Shown here: positions 15,621 to 26,105 of the stretch, one piece after another | How the letters are laid out: each line of letters opens with the position of its first letter | How positions within the stretch are numbered: position 1 is the stretch's first letter | DNA from: a virus | Taxonomy: Duplodnaviria; Caudoviricetes | Strand: one strand, 5' to 3' | Virus record (IMG/VR): IMGVR_UViG_3300046167_000610 | Coordinates: 1 to 27,717 of that record | DNA length: 27,717 nucleotides | Program-made: the position numbers and the translations under genes | The notes under the pieces: generated by a model | What the model was told of the DNA's origin: nothing | Databases searched by the model: none | The model's input: only the letters and a program-made list of their open reading frames with translations

Positions 15621-18412
15621 ATGGCTCAAACTAAACCTAAGGCAGCACAATTTTATGGCGTATCAGATAATGGTACAGATGGTCAGTTTTTAAAGACTGA
15701 TGGTACAGGTGGTATGTCTTGGGATAGCCCAATAACCAACCCTACACTAACATCTATTGATTATCCAGGTACAGCAACAGCAGCAGATCCTGCGGGTGGT
15801 GAAAGTGTTATTATTAATGGTACATTATTTGCTTCAGGAATAACTTGTACTGTGGGTGGTACATCAGCAGTTACAGCTTTTAATTCTGCTAATCAAATTA
15901 CAATTACTACACCAGCAAAAGCAGCTGGTCAATATACTATTGCTGTAACAAACCTAAATGGAGGTACTGCTTCACAAGCAAATTTTATACAATATAGCGG
16001 CGTACCCGTGTGGTCAACAGCTTCAGGTAGTTTAGGTAGTGTTCAAGAAGGAGCTTCTGCTTCTTTTCAAGTAACAGCTACTGAAGGCAGTGATACAATA
16101 GAATATGCAGTAACTACAGGTACTTTACCAACAGGTTTATCACTTAATACAAATACAGGAGCTATAACAGGTACAGCACCTTCTGTGTCAGCAGATACAA
16201 CAACAACATTTAGTATTACAGCTACAGATGATGAAAATCAAACTAGCTCTGAAAGATCTTTTAGTATAACTGTAACTAATGATAATCCTAGTAATCACTT
16301 TAATACTGTTTTATATACAGGTAATAATACTACAAACATAATAAATACAGTAGGTTTTGAGCCTGGATTAGTATGGGTAAAAACTAGGGATGATAACAAA
16401 AATCATGTTTTAGTAGATACTGTAAGGGGAATTAGCAGTGTGTTAGAGGCTGACACAACAGCTGCTGCTGTTACAGGATATACAGATTTTACAAGTTTTG
16501 ATCCAAACGGGTTTACTTTAGCAGCAACTAGTGCTGTTTATATGAATCCGGCTGGGATAAATATGGTTTCATGGAACTGGAAAGCTGGTGGTACACCTAC
16601 AGCAACTAATTCAGAAGCGGCAGGGGGCGTACCAACTAGTGGAAGTGTAATGATAAACGGAGTAGCTTCTACAGCAGCCTTAGCAGGTAATGTAGTAGCT
16701 AAAAAAATGTCAGTTAATACTTCTTTAGACTTTTCGATAGTAGATTTTACTAGTGTTGCGGGCTCAACTAATCAAGTACCACACGGACTTAGCGGTACTC
16801 CTGATTTATTTATATTTAAAAGAACTGATGCTGCTCAAGATTGGTATGTATATACAGAAGTAATAGATGGAAGTTTAGATTATTTAGTTCTTAACTCTAA
16901 TGCCGCAAAATCAGACTCAAGTGAAACAGCACCTACAGCTACTACGGTTTATCAACCAACAAGTACAGGTTCTAGAGATTATATACTTTATTCTTTTAAA
17001 TCAAAACCAGGTTTTAGCAAAGTAGGTTCTTACACTGGAAATGGTACAAGTCAAAACATATCTACTGGGTTTAAAGTTGGTTTTGTTCTTATAAAATCCG
17101 CAACATCTACACAAAATTGGATGGTGTATGATTCAACGAGAGGGTGGTAATAAATATTTAATAGCTGATTCATCAAGTGCAGAAGGAACGTCTGGATCAA
17201 ACTTAGTTAATTTTTATACAAACGGTTTTGGTGTTTTAAGTAGTAATAGTGAAAATCAAAGTGGTCAAACTTTTATTTATCTAGCTTTTGCAGCTGATCC
17301 TTCTACAACAACACCTAGCTTAGCTAATAGTTTTGATATACAACACTTTATGCTGGATCATGCTAGGACTCCATTCAATCTATAACTGGCACTAGGATTT
17401 GAACCTGACTTTATTCTGGGGTAAAAGCAAGAAACGCATACATGGTCAAATGGTCGTTTTAGCTCTGTAATGCCTTCATGGTGTTAACGGCGGTAGTTAA
17501 CAATAGTTTATTACCTTACGCAACTAGTGCGGATGTTGATCCTAGATCTCTGCGGAACTTCAACTTGGACCTTATAATGGTTGGACTTCTAAATGGCGGT
17601 ACAGTTGGACCGGTAGTTCTGCTCACTGTTTTTGGCGCAGGTGCTTATAATCATGTTGCATCGTGGTACTGGAAAGCAGGGGGATTAGCTTCTATAAACA
17701 CAGACGGATCTATTACAAGCGTAGTTTCAGCAAATCAAGCGGCTGGATTTAGTGTTGTGAAGGTATGACAGGCACGTGGCAGTAATGCAATCTATTGGAC
17801 ACGGTCTTGGCTGCTGCCCCTCAATTAGTTATTCAATAGAGCTTAAAGTGTATCAGGGCGGCAGGCTATTGGTTGGTCTTTATATGCTGCACCTATCAGG
17901 AATGGGTACAGGTAAATATTTAACTTTAAGATTAGTACTGCAAACAGTTGCAGATGTTTACTGCTAGTTTCTTTGTTCGTGCAGTTGGTAGCAGTACAAT
18001 AACAAGTTATTATACAAGTAGTTCTCAAAATCATATAGCATATTTTTTCACATCAATAGCAGGTTATAGTAAAGTGGGCTCTTATACTTGGACAGGAACT
18101 TCTTATACAGCAGGAACTTTAGTAACAGGACTTGGATTTACTCCTAGTTTTGTTATGATTAAAGGTACGGATGTCACTTCAAATTGGATGATATATGATA
18201 ATCAAAGAGTTTCAGGTACACAAAGTTACAGACTTGCTGCAAACTTAGCAGCCGCAGAAGACACGTCAGGTTATCAAGGAATAATATTGGATAGTAATGG
18301 CTTTAGTGCAGGTACAGGTGCAGATGGTAACGTAACAGGAAGTGATGGTTTAAATAAAAATGGTAGTACTTACATCTATTTAGCAATAGCATTAGCAATA
18401 AAAGAAAATTAA
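15621..18412 (+). CDS. Large tail/receptor-binding protein (IPT/TIG-like + Ig-like + two FNTVLYTG-type repeat domains), frameshifted in this sequence
   Basis: ORFs 15621..17150, 17128..17385, 17478..17768, 17776..17967 and 17948..18412 carry consecutive parts of two copies of the domain FNTVLYTG..GFEP..W.K...WxWKAGG...HGL...SKVGSY...W..YD..R...YLA. 17340-17990 is indel-rich. Confidence 0.65.
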
Positions 18413-18418
18413 TAAAAA

Positions 18419-18862
18419 ATGGCTTTAACAAAAGTAACAAGTAACGTATTAAATGACGACGCAGTCACAACATCAAAAATAGTTAATGCTAATGTAACTT
18501 CTAGTAAATTAGCTGCAGCTAGTGTTACTAGTACTAAAGTAGGTACTGAATTTACAACAGCTACTGCTTTAACACCAGCAGCTACAATTGATGTAAGCTA
18601 TACAGCAGCTCAGGTATTTACATTAACACCTAATGCTAATACTACACTTAATATAACTAATCCTGTATTCGGTGTAACTAAAGCTATAGTTGTAACCGGT
18701 GCAGGTGGTTCATATACATTAGGTTTTACAGTAGGCGGATCAGCAGGTACATTTAATAAAATATCTGGTGACTATAGTGATACTGCAGCTGCTAAAAATT
18801 TTATACAAATCACATGTGTAGGTGCCACTGAGTTTTGGTATACTATATCTCAAATAGCTTAA
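18419..18862 (+). CDS. Small tail fibre-associated protein
   Basis: 147 aa; MALTKV N-terminus (cf. MALTKL at 13727) and 10-aa repeats AVTTSKIVNA/NVTSSKLAAA/SVTSTKV. Confidence 0.65.
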   Translation: MALTKVTSNVLNDDAVTTSKIVNANVTSSKLAAASVTSTKVGTEFTTATALTPAATIDVSYTAAQVFTLTPNANTTLNITNPVFGVTKAIVVTGAGGSYTLGFTVGGSAGTFNKISGDYSDTAAAKNFIQITCVGATEFWYTISQIA

Positions 18863-18865
18863 AGT

Positions 18866-21800
18866 ATGTTTGGACAAAGTCTGTTATCAGCTTTTGGAAT
18901 TGCGTGTACAACGGACACAGACCAGTTATTTACAACTAATCTAACAGATACATGCACAGCTACATATCAATTAAATAGTGGATGGTAGTTCTATCCCAAG
19001 TAATACATATCCTTTAACTACAAATGGAATAACATTTGCAAGTGGTAAATTTGGAAATGCAGCAGGATTTTCTTCAGGTAATGCATCTACGGGTGATTAT
19101 ATGAAAGTTTCAAATTCTATTTATGGCTCATCAACTACAGTTTTTTCTTGGTCTTTATGGATAAAATGTGACAATACAACAGGCACAGGTATTAACATAA
19201 TGGGTAATGGAGCATTAGCAGGAGGTCAAACGGGGTATACTGTTTATTTATATAACGGTAGATTAGCATTAAGTACATTGCAAAGCAGTGATCAATATTT
19301 TCCAAATCCTGAAAGCAATGGTACTTTGATAAATGATAATCAATGGCATAATATTGTGCTTACTTATAATAATGGTTCTTTTGTTTTATATTTAGATGGC
19401 TCACCTAATCAAACAGGAACTTCAAGTAATTATATAAATAATGCAACACCTGCAAGTGATACATACATAGGTAATTCATTTCAAAGAGGTATTTCTGACG
19501 GTATAGTAAATGGACAAATAGACCAGGTTAGGGTGTTTGGTGGAACAATATTAAATCAAGATGCAGTAACTGCATTATACAACGAAACAACTACAACAGC
19601 TACTTATCCTTATATTACTACTGAAGTTGCTAATCCTAATAGCATTGCATACTACAAAATGTCAGATGCTACAGATCAGCTTGGTAATTACAATGGTACA
19701 GCCACTAATGTAAACTTTAATACTGAAGGTAAGTTTGGATTTGCTGGAGCGTTTAATGGTAGCAGCAGCAGAATAATTTTAGGTACTTCACAAGATTTTT
19801 CTGTAACAAAAACAGGTGAAATAAGTTTTAGTTTATGGATAAAAACAACAACCTCAGGTACTGGTTATGTTTTTTCCAAAGGTAATGATGCTACTGTAGA
19901 ATATGAATATTTTTTAGAATTATTACAACCAAGTGGCAAATTAAATTGGAGAGCTGTTAATAATAGTGATCTTGTTGCTGCACAAGTTAACTACACCCTC
20001 AAGTACTTTTACAGCAGGTACTTGGTATCACGTAGTTGTAACAAAAAGTTCTACATCAGGAAGAAAATTTTATGTAAATGGATCTGTAGTAGCAACTGAT
20101 TCGGGAAATAGTAATTCAGGAAGTAGTTCGGGTGGTAGAAATTTACTTGGAGCATATTCATCAAGTGGAAATCCTACCTCTACAGCATTTGAATTTGATG
20201 GTAAATTAGACCAAATAAGAATATACGACTCAGCTATATCAGCAGCTGATGTAACTACACTTTACAGAGAAGTTGAATGTGAGCCAGCGGCTATAAATGC
20301 TTTAAATCAATTTAATACTGTTTTATATACAGGAGATGGTAGTAATGGTCATTCAATTAATACAGTAGGATTTAAACCTGATTTTACTTGGATAAAAACA
20401 AGAACCGATATAGGAGGTTCAAATCATTTTCTTTTTGATAGCATTAGAGGTGCAACAAATAGAATTTTTTCAAATCGAAATCTTGCAGAAGCAGCAGATC
20501 TTGATTCTTTAGTATCATTTGATACAGATGGAATAACTGTTACTGATGATGCCGCAGGTAATTATGCAGTAAACGGTAATAATGAAACATACGTAGCTTG
20601 GAACTGGAAAGCACCTTTAGCTAATTTATCAACTAGCTTTAACGGGAGTAATAGTACAATAACAATAGCTAATAATGCAGTGTTTAATTTTACAACTCCT
20701 ACAAGTTTAAGCGTATGGGTTAATAGAAATACAACAAGTAGGGATTTTATCATAGATAAAGGTAATGGTTCAAGTGGAAGCTATGGTTGGCAGTTTGAAT
20801 ATTATAACTCAGAATATGTTTTTCAATTAAACAATACTGTGGGGGGAATTATGGATATTCGAGCAACTACTACTTCTGGTACTGGAATTTGGGACCATGT
20901 TGCAGTTACTTACGACTCAAACCAAGTTGGAAAAATTTATTTAAATGGAGTATTAAAGGCTACAGATACGATGTCAGGAACTGCATCCTTTAATACAAAT
21001 GGGTGTAACAATAGGGAAATATAGTTTAGCTTCTGGATATGAGATGTGATGGAAAGTTAGCCAAGTAGTTTCTTTAGGATTAACACTATCAGTCAGAAGT
21101 ATCTGATCTATACGCAGAACCAGCAGCAAGTAATAATACGTTAAACTATCCTGCAGGTGCAGGCTGTATCGCAGCTTATCCATTACAAACAAATGCAGTA
21201 GATTTAAGTGGTAATTACAGTGGTGCATCTAGTAATGTAACATTTGGTCAGCCAGGTTATTTAACTCAGTAATACTGATGGCGCAATACCAAGCACAGTA
21301 GCCGCTAATGTAGAAGCTGGATTTAGTATTGTGAGCTATACCGCTACAGGCTCTACCGCAACTGTAGGACACGGTCTAGCAGCTCCCCCTGATTTAATAC
21401 TTGCAAAAACAAGCAATCAAGCTTATAATTGGATAGCATATTCATCTGCTTTAGGTTCATCAACACAATTACTCCTTGATCTGGCAATGGCAGCTCAGAC
21501 AGGTTCATCTATTATGGCTAGCACAGACCCTACGAGTACAGTATTTACAGCAGGTGCAGGAAATAATCTTAATTATGCAAATGGCAATACAATAATAGCT
21601 TACTGTTTTAAATCAATAGCAGGTTATAGCAAAGTGGGCTCTTATACTTCAACTTATCCAAGTACAACCTCTGTATACGTTGGCTTTCAACCAAGATTTG
21701 TTATGATTAAAAGTTATAATCAAGCAAGAAATTGGGTTATACATGATTCCGCAAGAGGAGCTGATGAACAATTATATGCAAATTTAAATAATGCAGAAGG

Positions 21801-21912
21801 TAATACGGGAACAGATTTTCAATTTACTTCAACAGGATTTAATGTAAGCGGTGGTGGTAATGATTTAGATGGTGGTCCATCTTATAGTTATATATATTTA
21901 GCAATAGCATAA
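18866..21912 (+). CDS. LamG/concanavalin A-like lectin domain tail protein (3 LamG-like domains + FNTVLYTG-type domain), frameshifted in this sequence
   Basis: Likely start MFGQSLLSAFGIACTTDTDQLF at 18866. LamG motifs SLWIK...WHNIVLTY...LYLDG...GQIDQVRVF recur three times. Frame breaks near 18978, 19990, 21000-21100 and 21270. Confidence 0.7.
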
Positions 21913-21922
21913 ATTAAATAAA

Positions 21923-22348
21923 ATGAGTGAAAAAAAGAAACCCTTTAAAGATACAGGTGTCGGACGGTTTTTAATCGAAAAGGCACCAAGTATTCTAGGA
22001 ATGGTCGGCGACGCAATATTGCCGGGAAATGTAATATCAGAACTAATTAGTGGTAACTCTCAGCTTTCAGAAAGCGATAAACAAGTTGCACTAGAAAAGT
22101 TAAGAATAGAAAGAGCCGAAATTGATGGCACAACCAAAAGATGGGTCGCAGATGCTCGAAGCGGAAACTGGCTTGCGTCCAATGTCCGACCATTGGTTCT
22201 TGTATTTTTAACAATATCATATGTTATAGGGTGGTACGCCGGCTATTCACTGGAATCAGTGACTTCATTATTAACTATCGTAATAGGAGGCTATTTTGGA
22301 TCTCGCGGCGTGGAAAAGGTATTTGGAAATAATAAACATAAACAATGA
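21923..22348 (+). CDS. Putative holin (3TM-type family)
   Basis: 141 aa; RWVADA...WLASNVRPLVLVFL(TM)...SLLTIVIGGYFGSRGVEK; lies upstream of the endolysin. Confidence 0.75.
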   Translation: MSEKKKPFKDTGVGRFLIEKAPSILGMVGDAILPGNVISELISGNSQLSESDKQVALEKLRIERAEIDGTTKRWVADARSGNWLASNVRPLVLVFLTISYVIGWYAGYSLESVTSLLTIVIGGYFGSRGVEKVFGNNKHKQ

Positions 22349-22497
22349 TTGAACAAGATTTAAAAATCTTTGGAATTAACGTAGGAGCAATGATATTTTC
22401 AGTAATACCTGAAATAAACACAGTACTACAGACGGTAGTTTTATTGTTATCAATAGGATACACAATATTAATGATAATAAAAAAAGCAAAAGAATAA
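22345..22497 (+). CDS. Small membrane protein (50 aa) in lysis cassette, not in ORF track
   Basis: ATGA overlap with the holin stop; MIEQDLKIFGINVGAMIFSVIPEINTVLQTVVLLLSIGYTILMIIKKAKE*; two hydrophobic stretches and a basic tail. Confidence 0.75.
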   Translation: MIEQDLKIFGINVGAMIFSVIPEINTVLQTVVLLLSIGYTILMIIKKAKE

Positions 22498-22501
22498 TAC
22501 A

Positions 22502-22846
22502 ATGAAATATTTTAATGAATCTGAATTTAATAACTTTGACAAAATGGACCCTAAGCTTCTTGAGATGTTAGATAATCTTAGAGAAACATATGGATATCCA
22601 ATTACATTAACGTCAACATATAGATCACCTCAGCATCCAATAGAGGCGCGTAAGTCTAGTCCAGGTGAGCACACTTATGGTGCCGCTGTAGATATAGCTT
22701 GTGTAGGAGGTGAGGCTACTTATAAATTAGTAAAAGCAGCTATTGAAGTAGGTTTTACTAGAATAGGTATAAGTAGAAAAAACAATTTTGTTCATGTAGG
22801 TATAGGCTATGACGGTGCTCCACCTATGACAATATGGACATACTAA
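22502..22846 (+). CDS. Peptidase M15A-family (Zn D-Ala-D-Ala peptidase fold) endolysin
   Basis: 114 aa; MKYF..SEF, LL..LD.LR...G.PI.LTS.YR, EHTYGAAVDI (H-x6-D) and FVHV Zn ligands. Confidence 0.85.
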   Translation: MKYFNESEFNNFDKMDPKLLEMLDNLRETYGYPITLTSTYRSPQHPIEARKSSPGEHTYGAAVDIACVGGEATYKLVKAAIEVGFTRIGISRKNNFVHVGIGYDGAPPMTIWTY

Positions 22847-22856
22847 ATTTAATTAA

Positions 22857-23078
22857 ATGGCAAAATTAATACGTAAGATCAGTATAGGTACTGATTACAA
22901 AAACGAAGCAATGCATTACTCTGTAGGTCAGGAAGTTTATGGAGGTCATACTATTTCAGATATATTAGAAGAAGATGGTGCTTATAAAATATTTATAACT
23001 AAAAACAAAGAGGTATTACCTTGGAAACATTTTAATTCTAATATGGCTGTATCTGTTGAATATAACTTAGATTATTAA
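22857..23078 (+). CDS. Conserved phage hypothetical protein
   Basis: 73 aa; LIRKISIG.DYKNEAMHYSVGQEVYGGH.I...WK.FN.NMAVSVEYNL; AAATT-type leader. Confidence 0.7.
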   Translation: MAKLIRKISIGTDYKNEAMHYSVGQEVYGGHTISDILEEDGAYKIFITKNKEVLPWKHFNSNMAVSVEYNLDY

Positions 23079-23680
23079 TGCAAGCACTTTTTGATTATAT
23101 TATATCTACTGAAAATCGTTACAATAACGTAGTTGATGTTGATGACAAAAAATTAGTTGTTAATACAGAAATTACAGAGAGAGATTACATGTTCGTTAAC
23201 AGGATAGGTAAAGTTATTAGTGTTCCAGCTGGTATAAAAACAGAAGTAAGTGTTGGAGATGAAATAATAGTTCATCATAATGTTTTTAGAAGATGGTTAA
23301 ACCAACAACAAGAAGAGCGTAATTCAGCTAGTTATCTTGATGAAGATAAATACACTGTTGCGGCGGATCAAGTTTTTGCTTATAAAAAAGATAAAAAATG
23401 GATTGCACTTCCTGGATATTGCTTTGTAGCGCCAATAAAAATACAAGACAAATGGGCTCTTGATACAGATGAAAATTTAAAAGGGGAACTAGTATATACT
23501 AATAGCCAATTAAGTTCATTAGGAGCGTCTATAGGAGACGTGGTGGGGTTTACACCTAACTCTGAGTATGAGTTTAATATTGATGGTCAAAAACTTTATA
23601 GAATTTTATCAAATCATATAACTATTAATTATGGACCGAAGAAAAAGAATAATACAAGCAGCGGAAAAAGCATTAGTTGA
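23078..23680 (+). CDS. Divergent tandem GroES-like co-chaperonin
   Basis: 200 aa with two GroES-like halves: MQALFDYII...IGKVISVP...VSVGDEIIV and ALPGYCFVAPI...KGELVY...SIGDVVGF...EFNIDGQKLYRILSNHI. Confidence 0.6.
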   Translation: MQALFDYIISTENRYNNVVDVDDKKLVVNTEITERDYMFVNRIGKVISVPAGIKTEVSVGDEIIVHHNVFRRWLNQQQEERNSASYLDEDKYTVAADQVFAYKKDKKWIALPGYCFVAPIKIQDKWALDTDENLKGELVYTNSQLSSLGASIGDVVGFTPNSEYEFNIDGQKLYRILSNHITINYGPKKKNNTSSGKSIS

Positions 23681-23873
23681 GCTTGAAAAAGTTATTAAAC
23701 AAAATATTGATTTATCTGAATTAGATCCTGAAAAAGCTAAAACAGCAGCTCAAGCCAAATGGGTTGCAATAGAAGATTCATTAAAGATTATAGAAAAAAT
23801 TGAAGAGTTATCTGATAAAAAATCTAATACAGAATCTAAAACTTTTTTAGGTGTTGAAAATAGAATCAAATAA
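23631..23873 (+). CDS. Putative terminase small subunit / helical hypothetical protein
   Basis: 80 aa, charged and helical; TAATG-coupled to TerL; assignment is positional only. Confidence 0.45.
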   Translation: MDRRKRIIQAAEKALVELEKVIKQNIDLSELDPEKAKTAAQAKWVAIEDSLKIIEKIEELSDKKSNTESKTFLGVENRIK

Positions 23874-26105
23874 TGTACAAACAAACGCTTTATAAAATAC
23901 ACAATGCTCATTTATCTGATAAAAAAATTAAACATCTTAATAAACATAAGAAGTTTGAATATGGATATAATGAAGAATTAGACTGTGTTGTAATAAGTAA
24001 AGATGGTACAATAGGTGATATATATGAAATACAAGGTCTTAAGGTAGCAATACCTAAAACTCCAAACAAAATAGATGGAGAAGACTTAAAACAAACAGAT
24101 CAATATTTTAGAATAAAAAATAAACCAGAATCTTTAAATAACATAAAAAGCATATATGATTTTCAATCTTACCCAGAGGATATTAAAGAAAAATACTACC
24201 AATATATTGATAGTGAGTTTAATTATCGTAATGATGGGTATTGGTTCATGTGCAACGGTGCCCCGAACTACATTACAGGATCGCACTATGTCTATTTATC
24301 CTGGACAAAGATCGACGTGGGAGCACCAGATTTTAGGCAGGCAAACAGGATATTTTACTACTTTTGGGAGGCGTGCAAGGCAGATAAGAGATCTTATGGA
24401 ATGTGCTACCTTAAGAACAGACGGTCTGGCTTTAGCTTCATGGCATCCTCAGAGACTGTTAACTTGGCAACAACTTCCAAGGACTCTAGATTTGGGGTCT
24501 TATCTAAAACTGGAGCAGATGCGAAGAAGATGTTTACAGACAAGATTGTACCCATATCAATCAACTATCCATTTTTTTTCAAACCAATACAGGATGGGAT
24601 GGAACGACCAAAGACGGAGTTATCCTATAAGATACCGTCAAGAAGACTTACCAGAAACGCCATCAAAGAGACCTATAGTCAAGAGGAATTTGGGAAGGGG
24701 CTCGATACAACAATCGATTGGAAGAACACGGGAGACAACTCGTATGATGGAGAGAAATTACAACTCCTCGTCCATGATGAATCCGGTAAATGGGAGAGGC
24801 CGGACAATATACTCAACAACTGGAGAGTCACGAAAACGTGCCTCAGGCTCGGTGCCAAAGTAGTAGGTAAATGTATGATGGGATCTACATCTAATGCTTT
24901 AAATAAAGGTGGAGATAACTTTAAAAAATTATTTTATAATTCAGATGTCACAAATAGAAACCGCAATGGCCAGACTACAAGTGGACTATATTCTTTGTTC
25001 ATACCTATGGAGTGGGGATACGAAGGGTTTATTGACAAATACGGATATCCTGTCTTCGATACACCATCAGACCCGATTGAAGGAATTGATGGGGAAAAAA
25101 TATTTACGGGAGTCATTGATCATTGGGAAAATGAAGTAGAAGGATTAAAAAAAGATAGTGATGCTTTAAATGAATATTACAGACAATTTCCAAGATCTGA
25201 AAAGCATGCTTTTAGAGATGAAACAGTTAATTCATTATTTAATTTAACTAAAATATATGAGCAAATAGATTTTAACGAAGAAATGGCTATTAAAGGTTAT
25301 GTTGTTCGTGGAACTTTTGCTTGGCAAAATGGTATAAAAGATACTAAAGTTATATGGGTTCCTAGTAAAAATGGTAGATTTAAAATATCATGGATACCGC
25401 CAGATAACATACAAAATAATATAATCATAAAAAATGGTATTAAATATCCTGGTAATGATGGCTTCGGAGCCTTCGGGTGTGATAGTTATGACATCAGCGG
25501 TACTGTTGGGGGTGGTGGGTCTAATGGTGCTCTTCATGGATTAACTACTTTTTCTATGGTAAATGACGTGCCTAATACTAAGTTTTTCTTAGAATACATA
25601 GCACGACCACAAACAGCAGAAATATTTTTTGAAGAAGTTTTAATGGCATTAGTTTTTTACGGTATGCCTATACTTGCTGAAAACAATAAACCAAGATTAT
25701 TATATCATTTAAAAAGAAGAGGTTATAGAGGTTTTTCTATGAACAGACCTGATAAACTTTTAGGTAATTTATCTAAAACTGAAATAGAATTAGGTGGTAT
25801 ACCAAATACATCTGAAGATATAAAACAAGCTCACGCAGCTGCTATTGAATCTTATATAGAAGATTATGTTGGCGTAAAGAAGATAATCATGGTAATATGT
25901 ATTTTCAAAGAACATTAGAAGACTGGGCTAAATTTGATATTAATCAAAAGAACAAAATTATGATGCATCAATAAGTTCAGGTTTAGCTGTTATGGCTTGC
26001 CAAAGGCATTTGTATGCATCTAAAACCAAACGTGAAGTTAAAAAAATTGATTTTGGTTTTTCAAAATATAATAATAACGGAATAAATAGTAAAATACTAA
26101 AATAA
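23873..26105 (+). CDS. terL: Terminase large subunit (C-terminus broken by small indels near 25878 and 25945-25960)
   Basis: LKNRRSGFS (Walker A-like), LLVHDESGKW (Walker B), MMGSTSN (motif III), FGCDSYD and AENNKP (nuclease). Continues off-frame as EDNHGNMYFQRTLEDWAKFDIN then YDASISSGLAVMACQ...SKILK* ending 26105. Confidence 0.9.
24156..24863 (+). CDS. Candidate overprinted gene in +1 frame of terL, putative lipoprotein
   Basis: 235 open codons; basic n-region, hydrophobic ILIVSLIIVMMG and IGS-C (Cys32 at 24249); coincides with a local GC rise. Confidence 0.5.
   Translation: MIFNLTQRILKKNTTNILIVSLIIVMMGIGSCATVPRTTLQDRTMSIYPGQRSTWEHQILGRQTGYFTTFGRRARQIRDLMECATLRTDGLALASWHPQRLLTWQQLPRTLDLGSYLKLEQMRRRCLQTRLYPYQSTIHFFSNQYRMGWNDQRRSYPIRYRQEDLPETPSKRPIVKRNLGRGSIQQSIGRTRETTRMMERNYNSSSMMNPVNGRGRTIYSTTGESRKRASGSVPK

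Follow-up and report, generated by a model that had tools for sequence, protein, structure and literature searches.

The locus and its terminase gene

The window, by which we mean the whole stretch of 27,717 nucleotides that was analysed, is a phage fragment containing GroEL and GroES, tail-fibre-like genes, a holin, a peptidase M15 endolysin, terL and a portal gene (Table 1). The neighbours of terL are a GroES-like gene, an 80-aa gene and the portal gene. The TerL protein is 30-44% identical to those of Elemovirus, Pachyviridae and Pervagoviridae isolates of flavobacteria, and Bacteroidota-labelled bins hold 28 of the 50 matches in a genome collection, the others being scattered over unrelated bins; from these two lines we infer a flavobacterial host. 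Marine Flavobacteriaceae phages bearing GroEL have been described (PMC5332604), and those of Group 2 share with the window the terL family and the order GroES-like gene, terL, portal. In the window, GroEL is accompanied by a 93-aa GroES (692-2523), and the second, GroES-like gene of 200 aa (23078-23680) precedes terL; these genes are present in 12 of the 12 genomes compared. Two small, very basic, Lys/Arg-rich ORFs (13-252 and 255-662) precede groEL, the second of which matches PHROGs of unknown function. The 50-aa hydrophobic ORF between holin and endolysin is a candidate second holin or antiholin.

As assembled, the terL of the window is shorter (681 aa) than that of its relatives (746-748 aa), and its last codons look frameshifted. 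The terL product of one relative, L001, has 746 aa and is identical to the window TerL over 670 aa, and contigs of all four sequencing runs compared with the window carry inserted bases at 25869-25888. The terL end in the window (25869-25960) is thus probably an assembly error. The tail-fibre-like coding region (17128-21912) is split into several overlapping ORFs, perhaps through further indel errors.

Table 1. Features at the terL locus, with the stand-alone u-spanin-like genes of distant loci. Positions are those of the window unless a locus is named.
Feature	Position	Strand	Remarks
Holin	21923..22348	+	phrog_3427, E 1.5e-13 (PHROG-only prediction)
50-aa hydrophobic ORF between holin and endolysin	22345..22497	+	homologs in 15 loci
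Peptidase M15 endolysin	22502..22846	+	PF08291, E 2.8e-15; phrog_894
terL, host frame	23873..25918	+	phrog_6681, E 2.8e-154; 681 aa as assembled
Overprinted +1 ORF, 235 aa + stop	24156..24863	+	ATG to TAG; second TAG 24864-24866
Predicted Sec signal peptide, residues 1-31	24156..24248	+	basic n-region; uncharged h-region ~24204-24245; I-G-S before Cys
Cys32 codon, predicted lipid-attachment site	24249..24251	+	made by TerL Met126-Cys127
Retained core, ~100 residues, to TerL codon 225	24252..24548	+	mild residue constraint; extent of the shortest form
Polar tail of variable length, dispensable and predicted disordered	24549..24860	+	relatives' stops at TerL codons 225-330
Presumed TerL Walker A-like motif, overlapped by +1 ORF	24413..24436	+	position computed
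Presumed TerL Walker B-like motif, overlapped by +1 ORF	24764..24793	+	position computed
Stand-alone u-spanin-like genes	L090:2594-3013, L142:612-1109, L162, L163, L164		lipobox, C-terminal hydrophobic helix

A long +1 frame lies within terL

The sequence-only reading of this DNA had described a stop-free +1 frame across the Walker A and Walker B region of terL, together with a local rise in GC, and both descriptions hold. The frame is open for 238 codons (TerL codons 92-330), the ORF itself occupying codons 95-330 and overlapping two motifs that we take to be the Walker A-like and Walker B-like motifs of TerL. The GC counts made by hand (27, 29, 14 and 14 of 60) proved exact on recounting. 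In 40-codon windows the GC3 of TerL is 0.40-0.60 inside the ORF and mostly 0.05-0.25 outside; the overall values are about 0.5 for the ORF and 0.12-0.15 for the terL sequence on either side. The 19 other genes of the window have a GC3 of 0.10-0.33, and none of them holds a +1 open run longer than 80 codons.

The length of the frame was set against a null model, as had been proposed. Synonymous recodings of TerL hardly ever matched it: a +1 run of 235 codons or more arose in none of 5000 trials with the codon usage of the window (mean 52 codons, maximum 172), and in 1/5000 each with the region's own usage and with uniform usage. When codons were shuffled within the region, a mean of 7.3 stops appeared and 0/5000 shuffles were stop-free. 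The reverse frames and the +2 frame are closed. The +1 frame is therefore longer than chance under the codon usage of its host gene, as an overprinted gene should be, and the ORF is real rather than an accident of composition. A further +1 ORF of 76 codons (24909-25139) was discarded, since it shows no group-specific GC3 shift and closed relatives hold a similar open stretch.

The ATG at 24156 stands in an A-rich context resembling that of other genes in the window. Contigs from two RNA-library runs cover the ORF, although such contigs carry no strand, level or frame information. A programmed frameshift out of TerL was considered as a source of the +1 product and set aside as unnecessary, because start codons and leaders are conserved.

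T5 Llp and Cor are receptor-blocking lipoproteins. Searches with the ORF returned no family of this type: there was no match in PHROGs, only DUF7657 below the cut-off in Pfam (E 0.034), and in the ESM Atlas a best score of 0.85, which is a lead only, with none at 0.9. When a profile was run against 1.84 billion representatives, HMMER returned 132 matches. They have the look of terL +1 frames or of frameshift chimeras: a TerL-frame segment is carried by 34 of them, and the TerL-forced positions match at 508 of 577. These searches make no stand-alone ancestor of the nested ORF evident, as would be expected of an overprinted gene. No description of this gene was found in the literature listings searched.

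The open frame is confined to part of the terL family

From 80 terL loci on viral contigs we left out one frameshifted locus (L017), which gave 79 near relatives. In 44 of these the +1 frame stays open across TerL codons 114-224, and in the other 35 scattered stops close it. Among distant terL genes it is closed in 86 of 86. These include six named records (Elemovirus, Pachyviridae and Pervagoviridae isolates among them), and in all six, as examined, the frame is closed and no nested gene is annotated. The range of the +1 frame is thus narrower than that of its host frame, again as in overprinted genes. The sequence-only reading had named observations that would speak against a gene. Scattered stops in close relatives were one, and the +1 frame of the close relatives holds none. 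Another, a GC-rich block in which the frame is open by chance, mostly falls away, since distant terL genes with a GC3 of 0.58-0.63 are still closed and hold 9-11 +1 stops.

Two scans of sequence collections used patterns neutral to synonymous choices, 80 loci being examined per scan among the matches listed. Within the clade of the window (clade A), 78 of the 80 loci so listed are open and the other two are cut by the end of the locus; in the wider group, 33 of the 80 listed are fully open and four more are cut by the contig end. A tree built only from the C-terminal part of TerL unites the near relatives, open and closed, in a single clade (support 98), and on this tree the closed members require at least four changes. 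We read this as one birth of the +1 frame followed by several losses, to which recombination could contribute. An 83-aa gene ahead of a 75-aa gene (flanks of the L022 type) is frequent among group B, closed and distant loci and absent in clade A.

The stops that end the open frame range over TerL codons 225-330 among relatives, and the composition of terL follows them. Of the 24 loci whose ORF stops ahead of codon 300, 23 have a higher GC3 (L, I, V, M and W codons removed) before their own +1 stop than after it; closed controls show no such step (0.23 vs 0.25). Taken together, the comparisons indicate that the +1 frame is kept open by selection.

Selection on the leader and the Cys

The third base of each TerL codon is the second base of a +1 codon and therefore sets the hydropathy of the +1 product. 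It had been cautioned that +1 frames in this DNA may be hydrophobic by default, and this was tested on the lipoprotein-like leader, which we find as described, with a basic n-region, a hydrophobic block and I-G-S before a Cys at residue 32. In clade A the leader (TerL codons 111-125) has a mean KD of 2.26 and is free of charged residues in each of the 19 loci, whereas the 35 closed frames average -0.04 and 4.2 charges; a basic n-region followed by an uncharged hydrophobic h-region is what a Sec/signal peptidase II substrate has. The lipobox itself agrees with the consensus [LVI][ASTVI][GAS]C at -3, -1 and +1 and departs from it at -2, where a Gly is forced by TerL Trp124; deviating boxes are also listed in the source of the consensus (PMC6139136).

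The Cys is present in 19 of the 19 clade-A loci that cover the site. The combination that makes it, TerL Met126 followed by a T-starting codon, occurs in 0/25 group B, 0/35 closed and 1/81 distant loci. The residue before it is Ser in 64 of the 80 clade-A loci listed and Leu in the other 16. Ser arises from Phe125 written as TTC (64/80 loci; 21/25 distinct ones), a codon with a frequency of 0.22 outside the ORF. The ATG at codon 95, with the frame open from there to the Cys, is found in 58 of 68 clade-A loci.

Group B has its leader elsewhere. There, a hydrophobic block lies at codons 131-138 (KD 3.27 vs 0.61, clade A having -1.03 at these positions), and both leader and Cys lie 16 codons downstream of their clade-A positions. 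A start at codons 105-120 is available in 25 of 25 group B loci, and also in 17 of 35 closed ones. Among the matches listed, a second Cys at codon 142 is present in 32 of 33 open loci against 16 of 47 others; it is preceded by Thr, so that this lipobox is non-canonical at -1. Selection thus falls mainly on the export features, and the clade-A product is probably exported by Sec as a lipoprotein that can do without its lipid anchor.

A retained core and a free tail in the predicted mature chain

The shortest complete ORF stops at TerL codon 225, which divides the mature chain into a core and a tail. The tail has a hydropathy H of 0.354 against a boundary of 0.458, given by a charge-hydropathy formula, and is predicted to be disordered. 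A transmembrane-like window (KD19 of at least 1.6) is found in the mature chain of 0/96 open loci and in 29/35 closed frames, as expected if stop-transfer segments had been purged from an exported chain.

Suppressed synonymous variation, the sign of constraint that had been proposed for inspection, gives a mixed picture. Third-position divergence was measured in 25 disjoint clade-A pairs, with codons 131-225 as core and 226-290 as tail. Pooled values are 0.142 for the core, 0.205 for the tail and 0.148 outside the ORF; closed pairs give 0.303, 0.284 and 0.241, respectively. The clade-A core is less diverged than the tail in 19 of 25 pairs but less than the outside in only 12 of 25. Over the first ~100 mature residues any suppression is mild, the divergence there not being clearly below that outside, and in the tail there is none. 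Residue-level constraint is, then, mild in the core and absent in the tail, and becomes visible only against the closed controls and the tail. A few sites that TerL leaves free are nevertheless held (Ala84 in 29/31, Gly90 in 28/31). Cys83, Cys126 and several Gly are invariant as well, but there TerL dictates the residue, through Met and Trp codons in the case of the two Cys. The ORF product has a pI of 11. A selected cationic character was rejected, as the net charge per 100 residues (+11.0 in clade A, +8.3 in group B) is similar in closed (+7.7) and distant (+10.0) frames and is the default of this frame.

A proposed change of export route and its probable spread

The 16 clade-A loci with Leu read G-L-C in place of G-S-C. 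In 14 of them Ala-Gln follows 3-4 residues later, a pair found at this place in 0 of the 64 G-S-C loci; the remaining two have no A-Q, no usual ATG and the shortest ORF, and may be decaying. Signal peptidase I follows a small-x-Ala cleavage rule. In Bacteroidetes the enzyme mostly exposes an N-terminal Gln (the Q-rule; PMC5837995). A-Q would accordingly be a signal peptidase I-like site that replaces the lipid anchor in this sub-lineage, and the switch hints that export, rather than the lipid, is the feature that counts.

On the TerL tree the A-Q loci occupy two separate places (a single clade is rejected, p-AU 0.000135), and two independent origins were at first sight a candidate explanation. 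It was dropped in view of the segment identities of one locus, L215: its flanks are closest to L009 (0.86 and 0.93-0.94), but its ORF segment finds its nearest match in the L192 clade (0.85-0.89 over codons 127-180). The terL genes of L215 and L008 are mosaics in which the segment with the nested ORF comes from another lineage than the flanks. The A-Q switch was therefore probably a single event that then spread by recombination, and its two places on the tree do not count as independent replication. Mosaics were seen in 2/43 clade-A, 0/23 group B, 0/34 closed and 1/75 distant representatives, too few to make the alleles a recombination hot spot, an idea that we rejected.

As a separate observation, two clade-A genomes with a G-L-C nested ORF carry lipoprotein-like ORFs of 59-68 aa (G006, at ~13263 of L295; G007, at ~16388 of L293), and G005, which has G-S-C, carries none; with two genomes against one, this is only a hint.

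Lysis genes and spanins

The sequence-only reading had offered the ORF as an outer-membrane lysis or exclusion factor, noting that the lysis cassette has no recognisable spanin. We likewise found no recognisable spanin in the window or in three near-complete clade-A genomes. Stand-alone u-spanin-like genes, with a lipobox and a C-terminal helix, lie near the lysis genes of five distant loci; none were seen in the flanks of open-frame loci. A profile built from these five genes was run against 11 records and the window (G006 and G023 covered to base 59000; G009 and G010 71-77% complete). It matched strongly in G023 (L319) only, weakly and without a C-terminal helix in G013 and G006, and not at all in G021, G022, G014, G015, G005, G007, G009, G010 or the window. 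A u-spanin was thus found in 1 of 6 closed or distant near-complete genomes, and a trade-off between the nested ORF and a stand-alone spanin was rejected. Among the genes listed in the genome comparison, no membrane gene specific to closed genomes was seen. Published annotations place u-spanins in two Cellulophaga phages, with no mention of overlap (PMC8776804). A scan for sigma-70-like promoters gave 20 sites against 30 expected, with a consensus that is wrong for this host group. Two closed-frame genomes (G014, at ~9301 of L305; G015, at ~10428 of L308) encode an outer-membrane-barrel-like protein of 346-366 aa with a lipoprotein-like leader and a C-terminal Phe, and a secreted protein of ~610 aa nearby.

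Discussion

We put the probability that the +1 ORF encodes a real, exported protein at about 0.8. To judge from sequence comparison, it is likely a de novo gene whose product is exported by Sec and, in this phage, predicted to be lipidated at Cys32. Translation would start at ATG 24156 on the terL message, late in infection; the leader would pass through Sec, and Cys32 would be lipidated and the leader cleaved by signal peptidase II, or, in the A-Q sub-lineage, by signal peptidase I instead. A polar working core of ~100 residues would then face the periplasm, with a disordered tail that is disposable. The product may act as a dispensable accessory, most likely one that blocks a receptor or an incoming competitor phage rather than one that fuses membranes. 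We advance such an exclusion or receptor-blocking job tentatively, at less than even odds, by analogy and from the patchy retention and the dispensable anchor. Patchy retention, anchor loss and fast change would be less surprising in an accessory for host interaction than in an essential part of lysis.

The exported protein might instead be a non-essential helper or timer of lysis that weakens the outer membrane from the periplasmic side or binds holin or endolysin, in a role like that of T4 RI or a disruptin. We rate this as only a little less probable than exclusion. The ORF shares its strand with holin and endolysin and follows them at a distance of 1.3 kb, no terminator-like site separates these genes from terL on the + strand, and no spanin is recognisable in the window or in the three near-complete clade-A genomes; T4 RI, a periplasmic antiholin that is membrane-tethered at first, is a precedent (PMC6832632). 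However, the closed-frame genomes G013-G015 also have no recognisable u-spanin, and no replacement gene was seen among their listed genes; the holin prediction rests on PHROG only; the cationic charge is the default of the frame; and the product is not a small amphipathic peptide like the 56-aa disruptin gp28 of phiKT (10.1101/515445).

An improbable alternative is that the effect lies in cis, translation and export of the +1 chain tethering terL transcripts to the Sec translocon or tuning TerL output, with a largely inert product. Selection on leader, hydrophilicity and minimum length more than on residues, and a tail free to vary, would suit this; the selected Cys or A-Q site and the mild constraint on the core (Ala84, Gly90) imply that the processed product matters, and the repeated losses show that TerL works without the +1 frame.

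That the ORF is a true spanin, either an Rz1-like o-spanin or a unimolecular one, is very unlikely. Its +1 embedding and N-terminal Cys recall Rz1, the lipoprotein embedded in the +1 frame of lambda Rz (PMC6139136), and no counterpart of the stand-alone u-spanin-like genes of the five distant loci was seen in open-frame flanks. By the definitions of that paper the ORF is nonetheless no spanin, because it has neither an i-spanin partner nor a C-terminal TMD, its C-terminus is free and its anchor dispensable. An o-spanin gene is embedded in, overlaps or adjoins an i-spanin gene, and here the host frame is TerL; an o-spanin always keeps its lipid anchor, and in the 14 loci with G-L-C and A-Q the lipobox Ser is lost and a signal peptidase I-like site gained, so that the anchor appears to be dropped. 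A u-spanin has a C-terminal TMD, and here the C-terminal KD15 is -0.6, no KD19 window reaches 1.6 in 96 open loci, and the C-terminus varies over ~100 residues (codons 225 to 330). The absence of a presence/absence trade-off and the lack of a recognisable u-spanin in closed-frame genomes also speak against the spanin reading. That there is no protein at all, the open frame having arisen instead from a GC-rich recombinant block or from a constraint at the RNA or DNA level, is equally hard to credit: recombination within terL does occur (2/43 clade-A representatives) and divergence inside the ORF is not below that outside, but GC3 drops at each locus's own +1 stop, GC-rich distant terL genes are closed, the own-usage null gives 1/5000, hydrophobic leaders stand at two positions in two groups, and the reverse frames are closed.

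The exported protein that we favour resembles several known phage products in part. As with lambda Rz1 within Rz, a lipoprotein-type gene lies in the +1 frame of a phage gene, and the mature chain is polar and, by prediction here, largely unstructured; unlike Rz1, the nested ORF has a terminase ATPase gene rather than an i-spanin gene as host, its mature chain is 100-205 aa with a free C-terminus, its anchor appears dispensable and its frame is lost in many relatives. Like T5 Llp and Cor and like T4 Spackle, a small, exported, non-essential envelope protein made early (PMC7677548), it is predicted to be a small exported, non-essential envelope protein, but those are stand-alone genes, whereas the nested ORF is overprinted in a packaging gene, and no sequence similarity to them was found. 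With T4 RI it shares a predicted periplasmic location and membrane tethering at the start; RI has a holin partner, and the nested ORF has a selected Cys or A-Q cleavage site. With phiKT gp28 it shares a cationic product in a phage without a recognisable spanin; unlike that disruptin, it has 235 aa and an export leader, and its charge comes with the frame. As in overprinted viral genes generally (PMC8227390), the new frame is confined to a sub-clade of the old gene's range, and the overlapping exclusion genes of Pseudomonas phage Fc02 (PMC9936078) show that an overlap can carry such functions; unlike those cases, the old gene here is the packaging motor of a dsDNA phage. What sets the terL ORF apart from other overprints is that three leader designs, length variants and losses are traceable in hundreds of loci. 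This analysis adds the two leader positions, the switch from Ser to A-Q (qualified by the recombination noted above), the purge of transmembrane-like windows, the default origin of the charge and the spanin test on whole genomes.

In outline, and with somewhat better than even confidence, we suggest that a whole clade of abundant marine phages of flavobacteria overprinted the catalytic core of its packaging motor with a new envelope protein, moved the export signal by 16 codons, turned a lipoprotein into a secreted protein, trimmed it, exchanged alleles of it by recombination and repeatedly lost it, the changes being mostly silent in TerL. To our knowledge, spanin pairs supply most of the long overprinted genes described in tailed phages. 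The present one, a gene of 130-235 codons, lies inside the packaging gene that is most conserved, in a marine group that is widespread and uncultured, and is missing from the annotations examined; it offers a sequence-resolved record of gene birth, relocation of a signal peptide, change of export route and loss, and the nested frame biases terL codon statistics in the clade. It can be knocked out without altering TerL, and it suggests that phages have a so far unrecognised function in the cell envelope of flavobacteria that degrade blooms.
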